Of a stretch of DNA of 64,000 nucleotides, positions 15,505 to 47,230 are shown piece by piece. Position numbers and translations under genes: made by a program. Each line of letters begins with the position of its first letter. Position 1 is the stretch's first letter. The stretch is taken from NCBI RefSeq assembly GCF_024223415.1, contig NZ_CP100500.1. One strand, given 5' to 3'. The DNA is from Escherichia coli (GTDB lineage Bacteria; Pseudomonadota; Gammaproteobacteria; Enterobacterales; Enterobacteriaceae). The notes under the pieces are model-generated. The model was not told the origin of the DNA, ran no database searches, and saw only the letters and a program-made list of their open reading frames with translations.

Positions 15505-15677
15505 TTGCCGGAAAAGCAGGCACCTGCCGTCTGAACGGTATCGATCCGGAAGCGTATCTGCGCCATATTCTGAGCATACTGCCGGAATGGCCCTCCAACC
15601 GTGTTGACGAACTCCTGCCATGGAACGTAGTTCTCACCAATAAATAAGCGTCAATACGGTGCTCCGTTGACGCTTAC
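15505..15677 (+). mobile_element. IS66-family 3' remnant: last ~45 codons of the transposase plus terminal inverted repeat ending ...CGCTTAC
   Basis: Translates ...LNGIDPEAYLRHILSILPEWPSNRVDELLPWNVVLTNK*, similar to the C-terminus of the intact copy at 29821..31356; inverted partner at 45289. Confidence 0.75.
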
Positions 15678-27488: not shown

Positions 27489-29043
27489 CTGCTTTTCTCA
27501 CATTTGCAGATTTTAAAAAAGCAAACAAAAACCTCCGTACATGATGTACAGAACAATCTACCAGGTAGTGGCGTCAGAAAACCCCCGGGCCGCCTGCACT
27601 TTCCAGAATGCGCCGGTTATGAAAAACCGGAAATTCAGTCTCTGTTGTAAGATGTACCCTCTGATACTACGTTTTCTCTGTGTATTTAACTCACTGTATT
27701 TATTGTCTTTTTAAGCTTGACTGATATTCTCCGGTCATAGTGTGCCGGATATACATCCCGTAAACTTCTCATTTTTATATAAAAATACCTGCACTCTCTT
27801 CAGCGCATCTGTCTCCTTTAAGTAAAAAATGTTTTCACGTATTGCTGTAAATTCATTTTAAATCAGTATATTACCTTGATATTGCTGTCTCCTGGTTTGA
27901 TGCGTAATCGTTCTGCCTTTCTGGATGATTCTGGTGCTTCCGGGTGCATTCTCCTCTGCACATGCAACAGTTCGTCATCGCCACGCTCCCAAAAAGCATA
28001 TAAAAACGAATCGAATTTGATATTTTTTTCAATCGTTTTTCATAGGAATTTCGTAGGGTATTCTCCGCTATAACCTCCATATTTGCTGCCTTTTTCTCCA
28101 TAAATCGTATGCAATATAGCCTGTCTGTCAAGACCTCTTCTCTGCTGTTGAGGAGACGATCTCATTTTTGGTCTTTTCCGGGAGAGAGGCTGTCAGATGA
28201 GCGAGCCGGATATACTGTCAGAGGTACACCCCGTAGCAGACCTGTGCTCCCATTTCCGCGATCCGGAACCAACAACACCCTACGGTTAATACCATTTGAA
28301 GCGTCAGGTACTGCAGGAAGTTCCCCCCTGCGCGGACATCGGTTCCTGCCGACATCTCACAATACGGCCAGACTGTCATGCAGTAACACCCGCATGCGGT
28401 CTGCGGTTTTAAGCGCACTCTCCCGTTTTCAGTGCACCGATAATGCGTCATAGTAAGTCTGGGGGAAGTTACGGAATGCCTGTTAAGTGGTGCCGTGGGT
28501 GGAGACAGCTTACTTTTCTACAGCAACTGCAGTCATTCAGGATGATCAGGAGATATTCTGTCAATGTCACGATCCTGCCATTTTCGTACCCGCTAAGATA
28601 CTTCCGTTACTGATGCTGTCCGCTTTTCACCATTTCATCCTCACTGACAGGCGTTGCGTTTTGGGTCATCACCACAGCTTTACGTTTCTCTTTTAACCGG
28701 TAACGCTCTCCTTTGATATTCAGCGTGGTTGAGTGATGCAGCAGTCAATCCAGGAGCGCTGTTGTCCGGCAACCACCATATCAACTTCTTCCCGGGTGTG
28801 GCGGAGAGGTGGTATCCTGGCTGAGTTTCGAAGCGAACCGTTCTTTTTGACGGGCGCATTTTACGTCCGGGCTGAATGTAGTAACGCGGCATGGAACGTC
28901 GGCCCGTATACCATTGCCTTAATCTCCGCAAAGATAACCTCGTCATTCCGGACATTCTCTGTAAGCGTCGTCTGAGTACCGTCTGGTCCCGAATCCAGGA
29001 TCCTGTAACTTAAGCACCCACTTATTTTGCAGGTGGACACCTC

Positions 29044-29427
29044 ATGCGCGCTAAAGAAAGACTTCCCCGGAAACACTATTCCCCTGAATTCAAAATGGAA
29101 CTGGTCAGGCTGGCTCTTGAAGAAGAAGGCAGTATTGCCGCACTGGCCCGGAAACATGACGTCAATGATAACCTGCTCTTTAAATGGATAAGGCTCTGGC
29201 AGCGTGAAGGGCGGGTCTGTCGGCCCCGAAAAAACTCATCGTCGCTTCCTGCCCTGATACCCGTGCAGCTTCAGGCGGGCTCTTCTCTCCCAACCTTCGA
29301 ACTACCATCCTGCTCTCCTCCCGCTACCTGCCACATAAAATGTCGGGGAGGAGAAATAACACTGACTCATCCCTCTGCTGAACTCATGAGCACTGTCCTG
29401 CGCGAACTGATGCGGGGGCCTGTATGA
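29044..29427 (+). CDS. IS66-family accessory protein TnpA (orfA)
   Basis: 127-aa ORF with HTH-like N-terminus; first of three IS66 ORFs. Confidence 0.8.
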   Translation: MRAKERLPRKHYSPEFKMELVRLALEEEGSIAALARKHDVNDNLLFKWIRLWQREGRVCRPRKNSSSLPALIPVQLQAGSSLPTFELPSCSPPATCHIKCRGGEITLTHPSAELMSTVLRELMRGPV

Positions 29428-29771
29428 TAAATCTTCCCGCAGGCACAAAAATCTGGCTGGTTGCCGGTATCACCGATATGCGCAACGGCTTCAATGGCCT
29501 CGCCGCAAAGGTGCAGACCGCGCTGAAAGATGACCCGATGTCCGGCCACGTCTTCATCTTCCGGGGACGCAGCGGCAGTCAGGTAAAACTGCTCTGGTCC
29601 ACCGGCGATGGTCTGTGCCTGCTGACAAAGCGACTAGAACGTGGTCGCTTCGCCTGGCCCTCAGCCCGCGATGGCAAAGTGTTCCTGACGCTGGCGCAAC
29701 TGGCGATGCTGATGGAAGGTATCGACTGGCGACAGCCAAAGCGGTTACTGACATCCCTGACCATGTTGTAG
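29424..29771 (+). CDS. IS66-family TnpB (orfB)
   Basis: 115-aa [33 protein letters not shown]...; 4-nt overlap with orfA. Confidence 0.85.
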   Translation: MINLPAGTKIWLVAGITDMRNGFNGLAAKVQTALKDDPMSGHVFIFRGRSGSQVKLLWSTGDGLCLLTKRLERGRFAWPSARDGKVFLTLAQLAMLMEGIDWRQPKRLLTSLTML

Positions 29772-29820
29772 CGCTCTTTATCCTGGTTGTCGCAGAATAA
29801 GCCTGGTAAAATACAGGCTT

Positions 29821-31356
29821 ATGAACGACACCTCTTCTGACGACATCCTTCTGCTGAAACAGCGCCTGGCCGAACAGGAAGCGTTGATCCACGCCCTGCA
29901 GGAAAAGCTGAGCAACCGGGAACGCGAAATAGACCATCTGCAGGCGCAACTGGATAAGCTGCGCCGGATGAACTTCGGCAGTCGTTCCGAAAAGGTATCC
30001 CGCCGTATCGCGCAAATGGAAGCTGACCTGAACCTGCTGCAGCAGGAAAGCGATACGCTGACCGGCCGGGTGGATGACCCGGCAGTGCAGCGCCCGCTGC
30101 GTCAGACCCGCACCCGCAAACCGTTCCCTGAGTCACTCCCACGGGATGAGAAGCGGCTGCTGCCGACTGAGCCGTGTTGCCCGGAGTGCGGTGGTTCGCT
30201 GAGTTACCTGGGTGAGGATGCCGCCGAACAGCTGGAGCTGATGCGCAGCGCCTTCCGGGTTATCCGGACAGTCCGTGAAAAGCATGCCTGCCGTCGGTGC
30301 GATCGCATCGTTCAGGCCCCGGCTCCTTCGCGCCCCATCGAACGGGGGATCGCCGGACCGGGGCTGCTGGCCCGAGTGCTGACCTCAAAGTATGCAGAGC
30401 ACATACCGCTGTATCGCCAGTCGGAGATCTATGCCCGCCAGGGTGTAGTGTTGAGTCGTTCTGTACTGTCGGGCTGGGTGGATGCGTGTTGTCGTCTGCT
30501 GGCACCGCTGGATGAAGCCCTTCAGCACTATGTCCTGACCGACGGCAAACTCCATGCTGACGATATGCCTGTCCCGGTGCTGTTGCCGGGCAATAAGAAG
30601 ACGAAGACCGGGCGCTTATGGACGTACGTTCGAGACGACCGCAACGCCGGATCAGCGCTGGCCCCCGCAGTGTGGTTCGCTTACAGCCCGGACAGAAAAG
30701 GTATCCACCCTCAGACCCATCTTGCAGGCTTCAGTGGCGTACTGCAGGCTGATGCCTACGCCGGGTTCAACGAGCTCTACCGCGACGGCCATATAAAGGA
30801 AGCCGCGTGCTGGGCCCATGCCCGCCGAAAAATCCACGATGTTCACGTCCGTACCCCGTCAGCCCTGACGGAGGAGGCGCTGAAACGGATCGGCGAGCTG
30901 TATGCCATCGAGTCGGAGCTCAGAGGTAAAAGAGCAGAGGAACGGCAGGCAGTCCGGCACCAAAAAGTGCTGCCGCTGCTGGCGTCACTGGAGGGGTGGC
31001 TGCGGGAGAAACAGAAAACCCTCTCAAGGCACTCAGAACTGGCGAAGGCGTTCGGGTATGCGCTGAACCAGTGGCCGGCGCTGACCCGCTATGCAGAAGA
31101 TGGCTGGGTGGAGGTGGATAATAACATTGCCGAAAACGCCCTACGACTGGTCAGTCTGGGGAGAAAAAACTGGCTGTTCTTCGGCTCGGATCATGGTGGT
31201 GAGCGCGGTGCGTCACTGTACAGTCTTATCGGGACGTGCAAATTAAACGGCGTGGATCCGGAACGCTATCTGCATCATGTACTTGATGTCATCGCCGACT
31301 GGCCTGTGAACCGGGTGGGTGCTCTGCTCCCGTGGCGGGTTACTCTGCCTGCCTGA
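29821..31356 (+). CDS. IS66-family transposase TnpC
   Basis: 511-aa ORF with N-terminal leucine zipper, CPECGG zinc motif and DDE region. Confidence 0.88.
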   Translation: MNDTSSDDILLLKQRLAEQEALIHALQEKLSNREREIDHLQAQLDKLRRMNFGSRSEKVSRRIAQMEADLNLLQQESDTLTGRVDDPAVQRPLRQTRTRKPFPESLPRDEKRLLPTEPCCPECGGSLSYLGEDAAEQLELMRSAFRVIRTVREKHACRRCDRIVQAPAPSRPIERGIAGPGLLARVLTSKYAEHIPLYRQSEIYARQGVVLSRSVLSGWVDACCRLLAPLDEALQHYVLTDGKLHADDMPVPVLLPGNKKTKTGRLWTYVRDDRNAGSALAPAVWFAYSPDRKGIHPQTHLAGFSGVLQADAYAGFNELYRDGHIKEAACWAHARRKIHDVHVRTPSALTEEALKRIGELYAIESELRGKRAEERQAVRHQKVLPLLASLEGWLREKQKTLSRHSELAKAFGYALNQWPALTRYAEDGWVEVDNNIAENALRLVSLGRKNWLFFGSDHGGERGASLYSLIGTCKLNGVDPERYLHHVLDVIADWPVNRVGALLPWRVTLPA

Positions 31357-31999
31357 CCAGCTTCACTTCGTCAATACGGTTCTCACTGCACGCTTACCAT
31401 TCTCTGCCAGGCATATGTCGATGTAATCCATAAACGATTTCAGCTTACCCCTTTTGTGGCCAGTCTTTCTGGCTGGCGGTTCAGGGGATGTTTTCTGGTT
31501 ATCGTGTACCACAAAGCAGGGATATTGCCCCGATAGTCACATTTCAGATTGATCGCGGTCTGAAGATGTGGCACTGAGGTAACGTGCTGGTGTCACTGGT
31601 ATTGCTGAAGTTATGGTTTTTCGGGGTCAGGTGAGCCTGTTGTGTGTATGCTTTTTGTTCAGGTCAGAGGGGGACTGTGTGGACAGCGGCTTTTGTCTCC
31701 GGGCATTCACGCCTGAACGATGAATGCGATTTTCAGCAATATTTGTCTTTGTGACACTCTCTGGTTGAGAAGCTAATGCGCGCCCCTGTTTCCACAGAGA
31801 ATGAGGCTTGCCATCAGCCGAAACATCAGTATTCCACGCCATACAGACGGCGCCTGACCATGTGCTGATGCAGGTAAAATGTTTCACTACAACTGTTCGG
31901 GTTGCTATGCAACGAAACAGCGATTCTCACGATCTTTAACTGCAACGTTTTTCCGCCTGAAAGTAAGCGTACAGCGAGGGCCGTATTGACGGGGATGTG

Positions 32000-33538
32000 T
32001 TATTCAGCTGGCAGTGCTATGCGCCACGGAAGCAGTTCGCTGACCCGGTTGACCGGCCAGTCTGCTATGACGCCAAGCACATGGCGAAGGTAGCTTTCTG
32101 GATCCACGTCATTCAGTTTGCACGTCCCTATCAGGCTGTACAGTAGCGCTCCCCGCTCACCACCATGGCCAGAGCCGAAGAACAGGAAGTTTTTACGACC
32201 CAGACTTACCGCCCGCAGGGCATTTTCAGCGATGTTGTTGTCGATTTCCACCCAGCCATCGTTCGCATAGTACGTCAGTGCCGGCCACTGGTTAAGTGCG
32301 TACGCGAACGCCTTCGCCAACTCTGAGTGTCGCGACAGGGTCTTCATCTTTTCACGCAACCAGCTTTCCAGGGATTTCAACAGCGGTTTCGTTTTTCGCT
32401 GACGTTCAGCAAGCCGCTGCTCTGCCGGCATTCCCCTTATATCCGCCTCTATGGCGTACAACTGACCGATCTGCTCCAGGGCTTCTTCCGTCAGTGCTGA
32501 CGGGATGCGGACGTGCACATCGTGGATCTTTCGGCGGGCATGAGCCCAGCAGGCAGCTTCCGTTATCCCACCATTGCGATACAGCTCGTTGAACCCGGCG
32601 TACGCATCCGCTTGCAGCACACCGCTGAAGCAAGCAAGATGAGTCTGCGGATGGATGCCTTTTCTGTCCGGGCTGTAAGCGAACCACACTGCAGGTGCCA
32701 ACGCTGACCCGGCATTGCGGTCATCACGAACATACGCCCACAACCGCCCGGTCTTCGTCTTCTTATTACCCGGCATCAGTACCTGGACCGGGGTATCATC
32801 GGCATGGAGTTTGCCGTCAGTCATGACATAGCCATGAAGCGCCTCTTCCAGCGGAGACAGCAGCCGGCAGCATGCATCCACCCAGCCCGACAGCAGTGAA
32901 CGGCTCAGCTCCACACCTTGCCGGCCGTATATTTCTGACTGGCGATACAGCGGGGTGTGCTCTGCATACTTCGAGGTCAGCACGCGGGCCAGCAGCCCCG
33001 GTCCGGCGATACCCCGCTCGATGGGCCGCGAAGGTGCAGGTGCCTGCACGATGGCATCGCACTGAGTACAGGCATGTTTTTCCCGTACCGTCCGGATAAC
33101 CCGGAAGGCGCTACGCATCAACTCCAGCTGTTCGGCGGTATCCTCGCCCAGATAGCTCAGTGAACCGCCGCAGTTCGGGCAGCACGGCGCCGCAGGCAAC
33201 AGTCGCTTTTCGTCACGGGGTAGTGATTCAGGGAACGGCTTACGGATGCGGGTCTGACGCAACGGACGCTGTACTGCCGGGTCATACACCCTACCAGTCA
33301 GCGTATCGCTCTCTTTCTGAAGCTGGTTCAGATCGGCTTCCATTTGTGCGATACGGCGGGAGACTTTTTCGGAACGACTGCCGAAGTTCATCCGGCGGAG
33401 TTTATCCAGCTGCGCCTGCAGATGGTCTATTTCGCGCTCCCGGTTGCTCAGCTTTTCCTGCAGGGCGTGGATCAGCGCTTCCTGTTCGGCCAGGCGCTGT
33501 TTCAGCAGGAAGATGTCGTCAGAAGAGATGTCGTTCAT
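32000..33538 (-). CDS. IS66-family transposase TnpC (second copy, diverged from the first)
   Basis: 512-aa [33 protein letters not shown]... Confidence 0.88.
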
Positions 33539-33587
33539 AAGCCCGTATTTTACCGGGCTTATTCTGTGACAACCAGGATAAAGAGAT

Positions 33588-33935
33588 TTACAGCATGGTC
33601 AGGGAGGTCAGCAGCCGCTTAGGCTGTCGCCAGTCGATACCTTCCAGCAGCATCGCCAGCTGCGCCTGTGTAAGGAACACTTTGCCATCACGGGCTGACG
33701 GCCAGGCGAAGCGCCCACGCTCCAGCCGTTTGGTCAGGAGGCACAGTCCGTCACCGGTGGACCACAGCAGTTTAACCTGACTGCCGCTGCGGCCCCGGAA
33801 AATGAAAACATGGCCGGACATGGGATCGTCTTTCAGCGCCGTCTGTACTTTCGCAGCCAGGCCGTTGAAGCCATTTCTCATATCGGTGATACCGGCAACC
33901 AGCCAAATTTTGGTCCCGGAAGGTAAAGGGATCAT
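33588..33935 (-). CDS. IS66-family TnpB (second copy)
   Basis: 115-aa ORF nearly identical to 29424..29771. Confidence 0.85.
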
Positions 33936-34333
33936 CGCTTCAGTTCCTGTATCAGCAGAGTCAGGAGCTTTTCGCTGACATTGCCATTGAAGCGGAGCGT
34001 CCCGTGCCGGAACGTTACCTCACAGCTGATACTGAGGGTTTCCGGGTCCTCTGCGAGCGATTCTGGCTGTTCGGCAGCTGCATCGAGAGTCACAGGAAGT
34101 AGCTGGGGGCTCTCTGAAGAAGGTAATAGCAGCTTTCCCTCGCGCCATTGTTGTCGCCATTTGAACAACAGATTGGCGTTAATGCCATTTTCAAGAGCAA
34201 GTTTTGAGATGGATATCCCGGGTTCACAGGAGGCAGCAACGAGCTGCTGTTTAAATTCGGGAGGATAATTAGGGCAGCCTTTTCGCCTGCCGGGAGTCAC
34301 ATTTTTCTGCATATCTGACACTTTGGTTCCCAC
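33932..34333 (-). CDS. IS66-family TnpA (second copy, diverged)
   Basis: 133-aa ORF overlapping orfB by 4 nt. Confidence 0.75.
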   Translation of the reverse strand: MGTKVSDMQKNVTPGRRKGCPNYPPEFKQQLVAASCEPGISISKLALENGINANLLFKWRQQWREGKLLLPSSESPQLLPVTLDAAAEQPESLAEDPETLSISCEVTFRHGTLRFNGNVSEKLLTLLIQELKR

Positions 34334-34764
34334 TACTTATTTGGTGGACACCACTTTGTCTAATTCGTCAGATTCTGACCAGACGGTTCAGGCTGTACGC
34401 TTACGCCTGAAAGCTGACTGCCTCCTGCTGAGGTGGGAGGCTATGATTCAGTGCGTTTATAGTCTCCGGGGTATGCATGTACCGGAGCATACCATTTCTG
34501 GTGGATAACAAGCCGGCACATTCAGACTGCAGTGAAGATGGAGGCACCTGGTTGTGAAGAACGTTTCTGCCCGTGGCTGCTTCGCATCATCAATGGTATT
34601 CATACCCGCTCAGAAATGACCGGGTGCTGAAGCCCTCCGTTATCGCGCAGTATAATGACGTATATGATCTGTGGACGAGTGAGCGGCGTGCCTGATGTAC
34701 GCCGCTATTACTGTATTTTACCACAGGGCTGGTTTTCTGCTGCCAGCCCTGTGGTTCTCAGACA

Positions 34765-35382
34765 TCAACTGTGAGCGGCATCAACCGATGTACGGTATGC
34801 CATAAGCACGTACTGATCCATCAGATTTGTCAGTGGTTCACTCTGACCCTGACGTGCAATGATCCATTGCTCCAGATCTTTTTCTGATTTGTGTTTCAGG
34901 TTTTTCGTCCAGTCGTCAAGGCTGTTTCCGGTCATTAAGTCAAGCCAGCAGAGCCAGACCAGTTTGAGACGTAACTCCGTGCCGCCAAACTGACGGAAGA
35001 GGCTGATCAGTTTGTTTGCCAGAGAATGTTGCTTCAGGCGCTCACATTCAGACAGCAGGATCCCTTCCAGCATCGGATGATGAACCAGCAGGTGTTCGCT
35101 GGTGCATAAATTCACCACCAGATCATCATCCAGGGACGGGGAGCTCCGTTTGTCCGGACCATAAATCAGCCGGTGCAGACTCTGGGGAACGATGGCAATC
35201 TCCGGTTTTTCGCCATTGAATGACACCCACCCGGGCGTCAGATTATGGAAATAGTAGATATTCGGATGACACACGCCCCATGATACGGCGTGCCGGGTGA
35301 AGCCGGTCAGCCATTTCTGGTAGTTTTCATGGAGCAGCTCGTAACGGGTCTGATACTGTTGTTTCATTTTCATATTCCTCAC
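34765..35382 (-). CDS. Hypothetical 205-aa island protein
   Basis: ORF downstream of alpA on the same strand; two hairpins follow its stop (34690-34754). Confidence 0.45.
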   Translation of the reverse strand: MRNMKMKQQYQTRYELLHENYQKWLTGFTRHAVSWGVCHPNIYYFHNLTPGWVSFNGEKPEIAIVPQSLHRLIYGPDKRSSPSLDDDLVVNLCTSEHLLVHHPMLEGILLSECERLKQHSLANKLISLFRQFGGTELRLKLVWLCWLDLMTGNSLDDWTKNLKHKSEKDLEQWIIARQGQSEPLTNLMDQYVLMAYRTSVDAAHS

Positions 35383-45288: not shown

Positions 45289-45700
45289 GTAAGCGTTAAT
45301 GGAGAATCATATTGATGCTTATTTATTGGTGAGAACTACGTTCCATGGCAGGAGTTCATCAATACGGTTGGAAGGTTATTCCGGCAGTACGCTCAGGATA
45401 TGGCGCAGATACGCTTCCGGATCAATGTCGTTCAGAAGGCAAGTGCCGATAAGCCCATACAACAGTGCACTGCGCTCGCCGCCGAAGAACATAAAGTTTT
45501 TATTTCCGAGACAGATGGCACAAAGGGCTTTTTCCGCGGCATTATGTCTGCCTCCGCCTGACCGTCAACACTGTAATAACAGAGTGCGCCCCACTGATTC
45601 AGTACACAGCTGAACCATTCTCCCAGTCTGGATTTTTGGATAGCGTGGCATTTTTCTCCACCATGCATGCAGTGAGTCCAGTAACAGTTTGCTCTTCTTC
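45289..45700 (-). mobile_element. Degraded IS66-family 3' remnant (terminal IR GTAAGCG at 45289, decayed tnpC 3' region), inverted copy of the 15505-15677 fragment
   Basis: Reverse complement of 45289-45430 aligns base-for-base with 15541-15677 (about 90 percent identity by eye); ORF fragments 45432..45791 and 45565..45840 retain ...LNQWGAL... like tnpC. Confidence 0.7.
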
Positions 45701-47230
45701 TGCCTGACCACAAGATGTGCTGGACTGGTAAACGATGGGGATACCTGCTTACGCGAGAGCAATAAGTGGCTGGCCACAATTCTCGGTACAAAACTCTGCT
45801 GAATAGCAGCGATTTTCCCAGCGTGGTGCGTCGTTTTCATTTTACTGGTTCTAAGTTAACAATTATCTGTTCACTAATGACTACTCTAAAAACTTGTATC
45901 AGGACTATCACTTATTTAAGTGATATTGGTTGTCTGGAGATTCAGGGGGCCAGTCTATAAACTTTTTACAAAAGGATGAATGCAGAAGGTTACTCTAATG
46001 GCCAGAGTGATGACAATGATGGTCAGACGTTGACCTGCAGAAACTGCATTTTAATTGGTCTATAAAGTCTGCAAGAGGAATCAGGGTCAGATCAGTGAGT
46101 CTTATCGCGGCCCGAAGCTATGACTGAAAGAAGGCTGGATACAGAATTGCAACAATTTGGCAATGTCAGAACACAGAAGCTTTGCAAGCAGGTGAAAGGT
46201 TATGTCTAGCAAAAGGAGTATATCAGAATACATCTACTGATGTACAAAACACAACAATAGCTTCATGATATATAAATACGTGATGACGAGTGGTACTCCG
46301 CATGGTTATTTAACTTCTCAGCACCACTAATGATCCTGAGCAACTTCGTATTTGGGCCATTGCCATGGAGTAGAAAGCTGTGTCTGAGAATGCAGAATTT
46401 GAGAAAAGAATTCGCTTTCTTGGAGAGCTTCTGAAAATGGCACGCTAACAACGTTTTGTTAAAAAATGTGAATCACTTGCCGGGGCTGCATTTTCTATTC
46501 GAGGAGAATGTTGACGTAGATATTACAGAAATCTCAGCGCATCAGGATAAACTGCTACCTTAGGTCAACCACCAAAAGAAAATACAATACGTCCAGTTTG
46601 TATGCCTTTAATAACACATCTTCTAAATGTTGAAGAATTATCCCGCCTGCTGAAGAACGTTGCTCTGAGTGTGATAAACCTTTTTATTCTTGATGATGTC
46701 AGCGAGAAGATGGAATATATCCCCGACTGGGTCGTGGTTACCCGGTTAAACATCTGGTGGCGCTAATAAATCTGGCAAGTCACATTCTGTTGAATGCTGT
46801 GACAGTGCCTTACCGAGAGAGCGAAATTGTGGTGTTCTAGTGCATAGTCGCCACCATTCCGGATAATTCTATTGCGTTGTTTTACAAGTTCTTTTACAGC
46901 GCAGATCTGTTGCTGACGTTGAATCAATAGCCTGGATTTCAGAACACAATGCCCGTTTGCTGGTTGGTCCGGCAGTAGCATTAATTCATTATCTGAATGA
47001 AATGTGTCAATCCACAGAAACCGCTGTCAATGACACATTTTGTCGGACGTTAACACGAGAAAGTCTGGCTATTCCGTAATGCCATCTTATTTCGTAATGG
47101 ATTGAGAATGCTGGATTTTTAATTATATTACGCGCAGTATTAATCGCGTAAATGTTTTGCGGTCAGCAACGGTGGGGGATCCATTGTTCTGTTCAATGAA
47201 TACCATCATACATTTGAATCAGGAGTCGGT

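Follow-up and report, generated by a model that had tools for sequence, protein, structure and literature searches.

Two different IS66-family elements, very probably inserted independently, in a CP4-44-type island of Escherichia coli

The terminal inverted repeats of IS66-family elements are reportedly imperfect, about 20-30 bp long and begin with GTAAGCG, and IS66 and IS679 are the members with which the family was founded and its function studied; the transposition of IS679 is said to need all three genes. The target-site duplication of IS66 comprises 8 bp (PMC6778807). The two elements described here, which lie in inverted orientation in a 64,000-nucleotide stretch of E. coli contig NZ_CP100500.1 (the window), resemble IS66 and IS679 in the gene order tnpA-tnpB-tnpC, the DDE type of TnpC, and the 8-bp duplication, but they represent other lineages. 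Element 1 shares its body, namely tnpB, tnpC, the right inverted repeat (25 of 30 positions), the 49-bp gap between tnpB and tnpC, the ATGA overlap of tnpA and tnpB, and the 8-bp duplication, with elements of the ISEc8/ISEc22 clade, whereas its left ~480 bp, which comprise the left inverted repeat and tnpA, are non-homologous to theirs at the DNA level. Element 2, assigned by us as ISEc8, differs from other ISEc8 copies solely in its insertion site, which is missing from all 5426 complete genomes searched. Nested insertion sequences (ISs) are known from decaying E. coli islands of the CP4-44 type, and the presence of element 1 in an IS21-like istA fragment fits this pattern with nothing unusual about it. 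The extents and orientations of both elements and the distance between them, as given in an initial annotation of the window, proved correct to the base (Table 1).

Table 1. Features of the two IS66-family elements and of their surroundings (positions in the window)
Feature	Position	Strand	Remarks
IS21-like debris hit by element 1	28576..28960	-	
Element-1 target-site duplication CATTCTCT, left copy	28953..28960	.	
Element 1, complete IS66-family IS of ISEc8 clade, left end probably foreign	28961..31397	+	2437 bp
Element 1 IRL, starts GTAAGCGTCGTCTGAGTACCGTCTGGTC	28961..28990	+	20/30 match to own IRR
Element 1 tnpA, 127 aa, HTH_Tnp_1	29044..29427	+	
Element 1 tnpB, 115 aa, TnpB_IS66	29424..29771	+	start overlaps tnpA stop (ATGA)
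Element 1 tnpC, 511 aa, DDE transposase	29821..31356	+	
Element 1 IRR	31368..31397	-	
Element-1 target-site duplication CATTCTCT, right copy	31398..31405	.	
Spacer, ancestral orientation	31398..31962	.	565 bp; 31406-31489 = istA fragment, remainder without annotated gene
ISEc8 target-site duplication GCCTGAAA, left copy	31955..31962	.	
Element 2, complete, assigned as ISEc8	31963..34404	-	2442 bp
ISEc8 tnpC, 512 aa	32000..33538	-	
ISEc8 tnpB, 115 aa	33588..33935	-	
ISEc8 tnpA, 133 aa from GTG	33932..34333	-	125/126-aa versions on record too
ISEc8 target-site duplication GCCTGAAA, right copy	34405..34412	.	

Both elements carry the complete gene set of the family, as the initial annotation had it: in each of them three open reading frames of one strand, with the ATGA overlap and the 49-bp gap in both, encode products with the Pfam domains of TnpA, TnpB, and TnpC (E-values from 1e-12 to 1e-107). 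Both TnpC proteins contain DDE_Tnp_IS66, zf-IS66, LZ_Tnp_IS66, and DDE_Tnp_IS66_C; the E-values for PF03050 are 7e-104 and 9e-107, and the matches to PF13005, PF13007, and PF13817 are above the curated cut-offs. The TnpB proteins match PF05717, which represents the Orf2 type of IS66 and is unrelated to TnpB of IS605, with E-values of 4e-38 and 1e-38. The motifs HADD, QADAY, and CWAHARR and a ten-residue motif, located in TnpC of element 1 at 245, 309, 330, and 433, respectively, occupy equal positions in both TnpC proteins, and presumably the catalytic residues can be assigned to them. In the case of element 1 tnpA, the start called by PGAP varies, and a shorter, 110-aa version is sometimes annotated. 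As a separate observation, a stem-loop over the tnpC start codon, in element 1 in the region of 29797-29823, is present in several lineages with compensatory changes, which suggests translational gating of the transposase.

Terminal inverted repeats were recovered on both elements, and all four ends open with GTAAGCGT. The repeats are imperfect, with 8 perfect bases and then 20 of 30 positions matching overall in element 1, and with 13 perfect bases and then 22 of 30 positions matching overall in element 2. The flanking 8-mers, when re-read, turned out to be exact direct repeats, as had been claimed for them. The duplications and the shared ends are beyond chance, since the probability of an 8-bp match at the fixed positions is 1.5e-5 per element and the window contains GTAAGCGT 10 times versus an expectation of 1.5. 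Both elements also show population signs of movement, namely occupied and empty sites and several chromosome and plasmid locations.

Element 2 is identical over its full length (100%) to many chromosomal and plasmid copies, and exact sequences of its TnpC and TnpA are found in about 900 contigs each. Its assignment as ISEc8 rests on the RefSeq label of these identical copies ("IS66-like element ISEc8 family transposase"). The ISfinder threshold for giving an element the name of a reference is at least 95% nucleotide identity. In the case of element 1, the copies in Combat11I9 and 181.1 are 100% identical to it, and the PGAP/RefSeq annotation provides no specific IS name but only the generic "IS66 family transposase". 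The exact element-1 proteins sought in 15 billion sequences were labelled only "IS66 family transposase/TnpA", and a literature search likewise gave no name.

The origin of the pair was approached by in-silico excision, in which each element was removed together with one repeat copy and the rejoined sequence was sought in other genomes, the population sample being 5426 complete genomes that do not include the source strain. The rejoined site of element 1 (a 600-mer) is 100% identical to unbroken sequence and is present as a single uninterrupted piece in 410 of the 5426 genomes; an alignment to IS21 istA passes straight across the rejoined junction. The rejoined site of element 2 has exact matches in two comparison loci (L001 and L002), and its empty state is also implied by spans of 6994 bp (9444 - 2442 - 8) in other genomes. 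As a separate target duplication flanks each element, and as other genomes have a separate empty site for each, the two are best explained as independent simple insertions of different IS66 variants, as the initial annotation had proposed. We regard it as very probable that the pair reflects two unrelated transposition events of two different IS66-family ISs into selectively neutral DNA, and none of the results of our analysis contradicts this. An assembly artefact is ruled out, as the duplications are perfect and the empty sites exact, both of which speak for genuine insertions, and 17% divergence and a different tnpA rule out that element 2 is a duplicate of element 1.

The two insertions differ in age. 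Element 1 occupies exactly this site in 294 of the 5426 genomes, among them those of strain 55989 and of O104:H4 strains, and is therefore an older, inherited insertion. Since it was inherited, its intact repeats, which have simply not decayed, do not show recency. In contrast, ISEc8 occupies the element-2 site in 0 of the 5426 complete genomes, and because of this, and of the 100% identity of this copy to many others, element 2 is a recent insertion private to the strain, in the sense of being absent from the 5426-genome collection. Thus, the earlier reading of intact duplications as a sign of recent transposition holds for element 2 and not for element 1. The left module of element 1 is full-length in 463 genomes versus the 294 with element 1 at this site, and the exact element 1 TnpA is encoded on plasmids of Klebsiella, Citrobacter, and Salmonella; these occurrences indicate that element 1 is mobile. 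Genes of both elements are under purifying selection (dS ~0.84; omega of 0.03 for tnpB and 0.09 for tnpC).

The host region is a CP4-44-type island, a prophage remnant. On the chromosome of E. coli, it is bordered by cobU on one side and by tmaR/yeeA/sbmC/dacD/sbcB on the other, and it contains yeeS, yeeT, cbeA, cbtA, yeeW, and a gene for a YeeP-like GTPase; the same genes are present between cobU and tmaR/yeeA in CP4-44 of K-12. The surroundings of the elements had been described as gene-poor. Intact genes are indeed lacking, but the DNA is actually IS21 debris, which we identified by DNA and protein comparison with IS21 of strain S17-1. Positions 28576-28764 match the 3' end of IS21 and amino acids 214-265 of IstB (90.5%), and positions 28761-28960, continuing at 31406-31489, correspond to istA codons 41-134 (87.4% over 286 bp). 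A Pfam search of the rejoined flank fragments gave a weak match to the C-terminal part of IstB (E = 5e-4), and a search of Rfam with positions 28400-35000 revealed no known RNA families. In other strains, this stretch carries other sets of ISs.

The initial annotation regarded the proteins of the two elements as related but clearly diverged. They do differ, but unevenly: the identity between element 1 and ISEc8 is 96.5% for TnpB, 87% for TnpC, and 32-40% for TnpA. At the DNA level, the first ~480 bp are unalignable, the remaining 1929-1956 bp are 83% identical in inverted orientation, and the switch point is the tnpA/tnpB boundary. Our comparison set comprised ISEc8, an ISEc22-family element (L010), and an element of Klebsiella quasipneumoniae (L006), which are 92-98% identical to each other in TnpA, 94-97% in TnpB, and 89-93% in TnpC. 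The corresponding values for element 1 versus these three are 38-40%, 93-97%, and 87%. Such an uneven pattern argues for a swapped left module rather than for uniform divergence. Element 1 is thus probably a natural chimera, in which a foreign left inverted repeat and tnpA would have been joined to tnpB, tnpC, and the right inverted repeat of the ISEc8 clade, and which appears to be still mobile and to have spread across chromosomes and plasmids of Enterobacterales. The DNA matches of 90-95% found in a search for a donor of the left module all trace to a deleted island variant, in which this left end survives as truncated remnants, and nearly all other TnpA homologues on plasmids are less than 60% identical to that of element 1.

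The same left end could also have arisen by very fast evolution of tnpA and the left inverted repeat in place, with no replacement of a module. Synonymous divergence of element 1 from ISEc8 is high, an unconstrained tnpA could in principle drop to ~35-45% amino acid identity in equal time, and an identity step at the gene boundary is predicted by both models. However, it is TnpC that varies more within the clade (89% identity vs. 98% for TnpA between ISEc8 and the ISEc22-family element), and TnpA of element 1 is as distant from that of ISEc8 as are the TnpA proteins of elements with only 59-63% identity in TnpC. Moreover, it is an intact 127-aa HTH_Tnp_1 protein, the exact sequence of which is present in hundreds of records across genera, which is at odds with a decaying gene. 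We therefore consider evolution in place unlikely.

The proximity of the two insertions might reflect a preference of IS66-family transposases for DNA near resident IS66-family ends. Such a preference would account for the position of ISEc8 at 565 bp from the right end of element 1, for IS66 elements of the ISCro1 family that other strains have in this island at a distance of 1-5 kb, and for two further IS66-family end remnants in the window. The stretch also gathers IS3, IS21, IS100, ISL3, and a group II intron, however, which fits a neutral sink that tolerates any insertion; the insertion near element 1 is a single event, and the two target 8-mers have no common motif. Targeting is, in our opinion, quite unlikely.

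The inverted pair could in turn serve as an invertible switch, in which homologous recombination flips the spacer and the inner parts of both ISs. Within the inverted homology of 1929-1956 bp at 83% identity, eight stretches of 25 bp or more are identical, and about 25 bp is reportedly the shortest length at which RecA-dependent exchange occurs in E. coli. Copies of IS66 are known to mediate homologous rearrangements, as exemplified by the deletion in pAt15955 (PMC6778807). Against a switch, the spacer is oriented as in the ancestral locus, the only orientation found in this one assembly, and both duplications are intact; the spacer also lacks a promoter-gene arrangement that could be switched. 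With 17% divergence, identical runs reach at most 37 bp, and mismatch repair is said to strongly suppress recombination between such diverged sequences. These features make a switch very improbable, and the earlier view that no recombination has occurred since the insertions agrees with the intact duplications and with the colinearity of the spacer with the ancestral locus.

That element 1 and ISEc8 form a composite transposon moving the 565-bp spacer as a unit, or did so on arrival, has a practically negligible probability: two IS66-family elements are inverted around a short segment, and cross-recognition is conceivable, given GTAAGCGT at all four ends and right ends alike at 25 of 30 positions, but the duplications are separate and perfect, with differing outer flanks (CATTCTCT vs. 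GCCTGAAA) in place of one outer duplication, the spacer has no gene and is, like both flanks, colinear with the ancestral locus, which is seen with element 1 alone or with neither element, and the pair occurs in no other genome (best cover of the 9.4-kb query of at most 83%; ISEc8 junction in 0 of 5426 genomes). The differing outer 8-mers and the ancestral spacer exclude arrival as a composite unit.

Returning to two independent simple insertions, we propose that element 1 would have inserted first into the istA fragment, duplicating CATTCTCT, and would later have been inherited by many strains. Much later, and only in the lineage of the source strain, ISEc8 would have inserted ~550 bp rightward in the opposite orientation, duplicating GCCTGAAA. 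Each element presumably relied for its movement on a DDE transposase of its own, TnpC, and on the helix-turn-helix protein TnpA and TnpB as accessory proteins; the transposase would act on the terminal inverted repeats of ~25-30 bp and make staggered cuts 8 bp apart in the target. We infer this mechanism from the known biology of the family, and the insertion footprints are seen here directly. No later interaction of the two elements, be it inversion, deletion, or joint movement, is seen. As to the origin of element 1 itself, its tnpB, tnpC, and right end belong to the ISEc8/ISEc22 clade, and its left ~480 bp probably derive from a distant IS66-family lineage.

The biology of the pair is already known and represents ordinary IS accumulation. 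The locus cleanly and fully documents how nested ISs build up in a decaying island, as the empty sites of both elements are present in other genomes, and the private ISEc8 insertion could be used as a strain-specific typing marker. The probable left-end chimera and the tnpC hairpin are of specialist interest only, and neither changes the current view of the family. If element 1 is indeed a chimera, the left end together with TnpA would constitute an exchangeable module in IS66-family elements, and TnpB and TnpC would be able to work with a TnpA that is ~35-40% identical to their usual partner.

Both IS66-family insertion sequences, element 1 and the inversely oriented element 2, contain three open reading frames in the order tnpA, tnpB, tnpC, with the tnpA stop and the tnpB start overlapping in ATGA and a gap of 49 bp between tnpB and tnpC. 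Their products match, far over curated cut-offs, the Pfam families HTH_Tnp_1 (TnpA), TnpB_IS66 (TnpB), and DDE_Tnp_IS66, zf-IS66, LZ_Tnp_IS66 and DDE_Tnp_IS66_C (TnpC). All four termini start with GTAAGCGT, beyond which the end-to-end match is 20/30 bases in element 1 and 22/30 in element 2; this motif occurs ten times in the window (1.5 expected), four of these being the element ends. Both elements have every sequence-verifiable defining feature of the IS66 family, and the coordinates, lengths, repeats and gap reported in the initial annotation are exact, as re-read from the sequence.

Features of the two elements and of related loci (positions in the window unless preceded by a locus of another strain)
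Feature	Position	Strand	Length	Basis
Element 1	28961-31397	+	2437 bp	sequence inspection
Element 2	31963-34404	-	2442 bp	sequence inspection
Spacer between elements 1 and 2			565 bp	sequence inspection
Element-1 flanking 8-mer CATTCTCT	28953-28960, 31398-31405			direct repeat
Element-2 flanking 8-mer GCCTGAAA	31955-31962, 34405-34412			direct repeat
IS21-like debris, total	28576-28960, 31406-31489
IS21 3' end, IstB residues 214-265	28576-28764			IS21 comparison
istA codons 41-134	28761-28960, resuming 31406-31489			IS21 comparison
IS66-family right-end remnant	15519-15677	+
IS66-family right-end remnant	45289-45714	-
ISCro1-family insertions	L002:2789-5414, L003:487-3102, L004:789-3404
Element-1 left-end remnant (CAVP814)	L014:3501-3666		166 bp
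tnpC-start stem-loop, element 1	29797-29823	+
tnpC-start stem-loop, element 2	~33536-33562	-
tnpC-start stem-loop, Klebsiella element	L007:3761-3788
tnpC-start stem-loop, Enterobacter element	L009:3741-3767
tnpC-start stem-loop, L004	L004:~2346-2372	-

Each element was excised in silico with one repeat copy, and the product was sought in other genomes. The rejoined element-1 site (600 bp) is present as a 100% identical, uninterrupted piece in 410 of 5426 complete E. coli genomes, and its alignment to IS21 istA (87.4% over 286 bp) is unbroken across the junction. The rejoined element-2 site has exact matches in strains ET490 and CS18F, while the 9.4-kb locus query matched dozens of genomes at 99.8-100% with a span of 6994 bp, that is, 9444 - 2442 - 8, the locus without element 2. 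The CATTCTCT and GCCTGAAA pairs are real target duplications, as had been proposed, demonstrated directly and with no need of a probability argument. With its own duplication and its own empty site, each element represents an independent insertion, also as proposed.

The intactness of these duplications had been taken to indicate recent transposition, which holds for only one element. Since the element-1 left junction occurs at exactly the same site in 294 genomes, among them strain 55989 and the lineage of the O104:H4 outbreak, this insertion is an inherited rather than a recent one, and the intactness of its duplication means no more than that it has been left undisturbed. The ISEc8 junction at the element-2 site was found in none of the 5426 genomes, the locus query retrieved no genome with both elements together, and the closest relative, Combat11I9, has the site without ISEc8 between flanks of 99.9-100% identity. 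Judged by this collection, ISEc8 inserted here recently and in the source strain alone.

The elements have not exchanged sequence, as the initial annotation held: the spacer retains the orientation of the ancestral locus, and neither duplication is disrupted. Its further suggestions, that the pair could invert the spacer or mobilise it as a composite, find no support. The pair cannot have arrived as a composite unit, because its outer 8-mers are not the same and the spacer is that of the ancestral locus. The inverted homology amounts to 83% across ~1.9 kb, with a longest identical run of 37 bp and only eight runs of at least 25 bp. From what is established about RecA-dependent recombination and mismatch-repair editing, the spacer could invert, but such events are expected to be very infrequent. 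The inference of IS66 recombination from matched versus swapped 8-mers is illustrated in PMC6778807.

Element 2 is, by the RefSeq labels of identical copies, ISEc8: over its full length it shows 100% identity to numerous copies on chromosomes and plasmids, the transposase of which is labelled in RefSeq as 'IS66-like element ISEc8 family transposase', and its exact proteins occur in ~900 contigs each. Element 1 is a rarer IS, a relative that is nonetheless widespread and has been annotated before. Its best match reaches 99% identity or better in 494 records, its unique left part is full-length in 463 genomes (mostly one per genome), and its exact TnpA is also found on plasmids of Klebsiella, Citrobacter and Salmonella; its proteins bear only generic names in RefSeq and other sources.

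The elements are related, as described initially, but their divergence is uneven. At the DNA level they share 82.7% identity over the 1956 bp between element-1 position 482 and the right terminus, while the first ~480 bp of element 1 cannot be aligned to element 2; protein identities are 96.5% (TnpB), 87.1% (TnpC) and 32-40%, depending on alignment (TnpA). With dS of ~0.84 for tnpB and tnpC and omega of 0.03 and 0.09, respectively, the two lineages are old, and purifying selection on these genes is strong. Five further IS66-family elements were compared, asking whether tnpA merely evolves fast. Among themselves, ISEc8, an ISEc22-family element and a Klebsiella element from L006 share 92-98% (TnpA), 94-97% (TnpB) and 89-93% (TnpC); in this clade TnpC is as a rule no better conserved than TnpA. 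Element 1 shares with these three 93-97% of TnpB and 87% of TnpC but only 38-40% of TnpA, a TnpA distance as large as that of elements with a TnpC identity of just 59-63%. Most simply, element 1 would be a chimera, its left end (IRL and tnpA) replaced from a distant IS66 lineage with the breakpoint at the tnpA/tnpB junction. No donor was identified among plasmid TnpA homologues and left-end DNA matches. In strain CAVP814, a left-end remnant (94.6% identical) joined to an ISL3 element lies in a version of this island that has undergone deletion, which shows that element 1 decayed later in some lineages.

The window belongs to the E. coli chromosome, and both elements lie within a CP4-44-type island carrying yeeS, yeeT, cbeA, cbtA, yeeW and genes for a dynamin-like protein, a YeeP-like GTPase and an AlpA regulator, bordered by cobU on one side and tmaR/yeeA/sbmC/dacD/sbcB on the other. 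The stretch described as gene-poor and ~2 kb long is ~2.4 kb without the elements and holds IS21-like debris. This debris is internally deleted and frameshifted, the istA part almost directly abutting the IstB part; its source element was 87-91% identical to IS21, and the same debris is shared by thousands of E. coli genomes and also found on plasmids. Element 1 inserted within the istA fragment, and ISEc8 ~470 bp past it, in unannotated DNA. The same few kb in other strains contain ISCro1-family IS66 elements, IS3, IS100, ISL3 and a group II intron; insertions of every type are tolerated there. Independent ISCro1-family insertions in three other strains are situated 1-5 kb left of element 1, with IS3, IS100, ISL3 and the intron nearby; one breaks the YeeP-like GTPase gene, one a dynamin-family gene, and the third lies between the GTPase gene and a neighbouring hypothetical gene. 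Either insertions accumulate in this stretch as in a neutral IS sink, or IS66-family elements target it preferentially. Two further right-end remnants, each a TnpC C-terminal fragment with an IRR starting with GTAAGCGT, mark both borders of the ~29.6-kb island, the IRR tips pointing toward each other. They share 88.7% identity over 159 bp, only 56-62% amino acid identity with element-1 TnpC, and their adjoining 8-mers are unrelated.

A stem-loop covers the tnpC start codon in element 1 (AUAAGCCUG-GUAAAAUA-CAGGCUUAU(G)) and in ISEc8 (AUAAGCCCG-...-CGGGCUUAU(G)), the ISEc8 stem differing from that of element 1 by one compensatory pair change (U-A to C-G). Against shuffled controls, the folding of both is more favourable (z = -3.2 and -3.0, respectively). 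In unrelated IS66-family lineages this position is occupied by other stems: a 10-bp one in the Klebsiella element of L007 (z = -5.2) and, in the Enterobacter element of L009, one with a compensatory A-U to G-C change (z = -3.0); ISEc22-family and ISCro1-family elements have weak versions only. The hairpin, which matches no Rfam family, suggests a putative translational gating of the transposase. The arrangement as a whole is one of ordinary nested, independent IS insertions of an already known kind; the putative left-end chimera and the recurrent tnpC-start hairpin are of minor, specialist significance.
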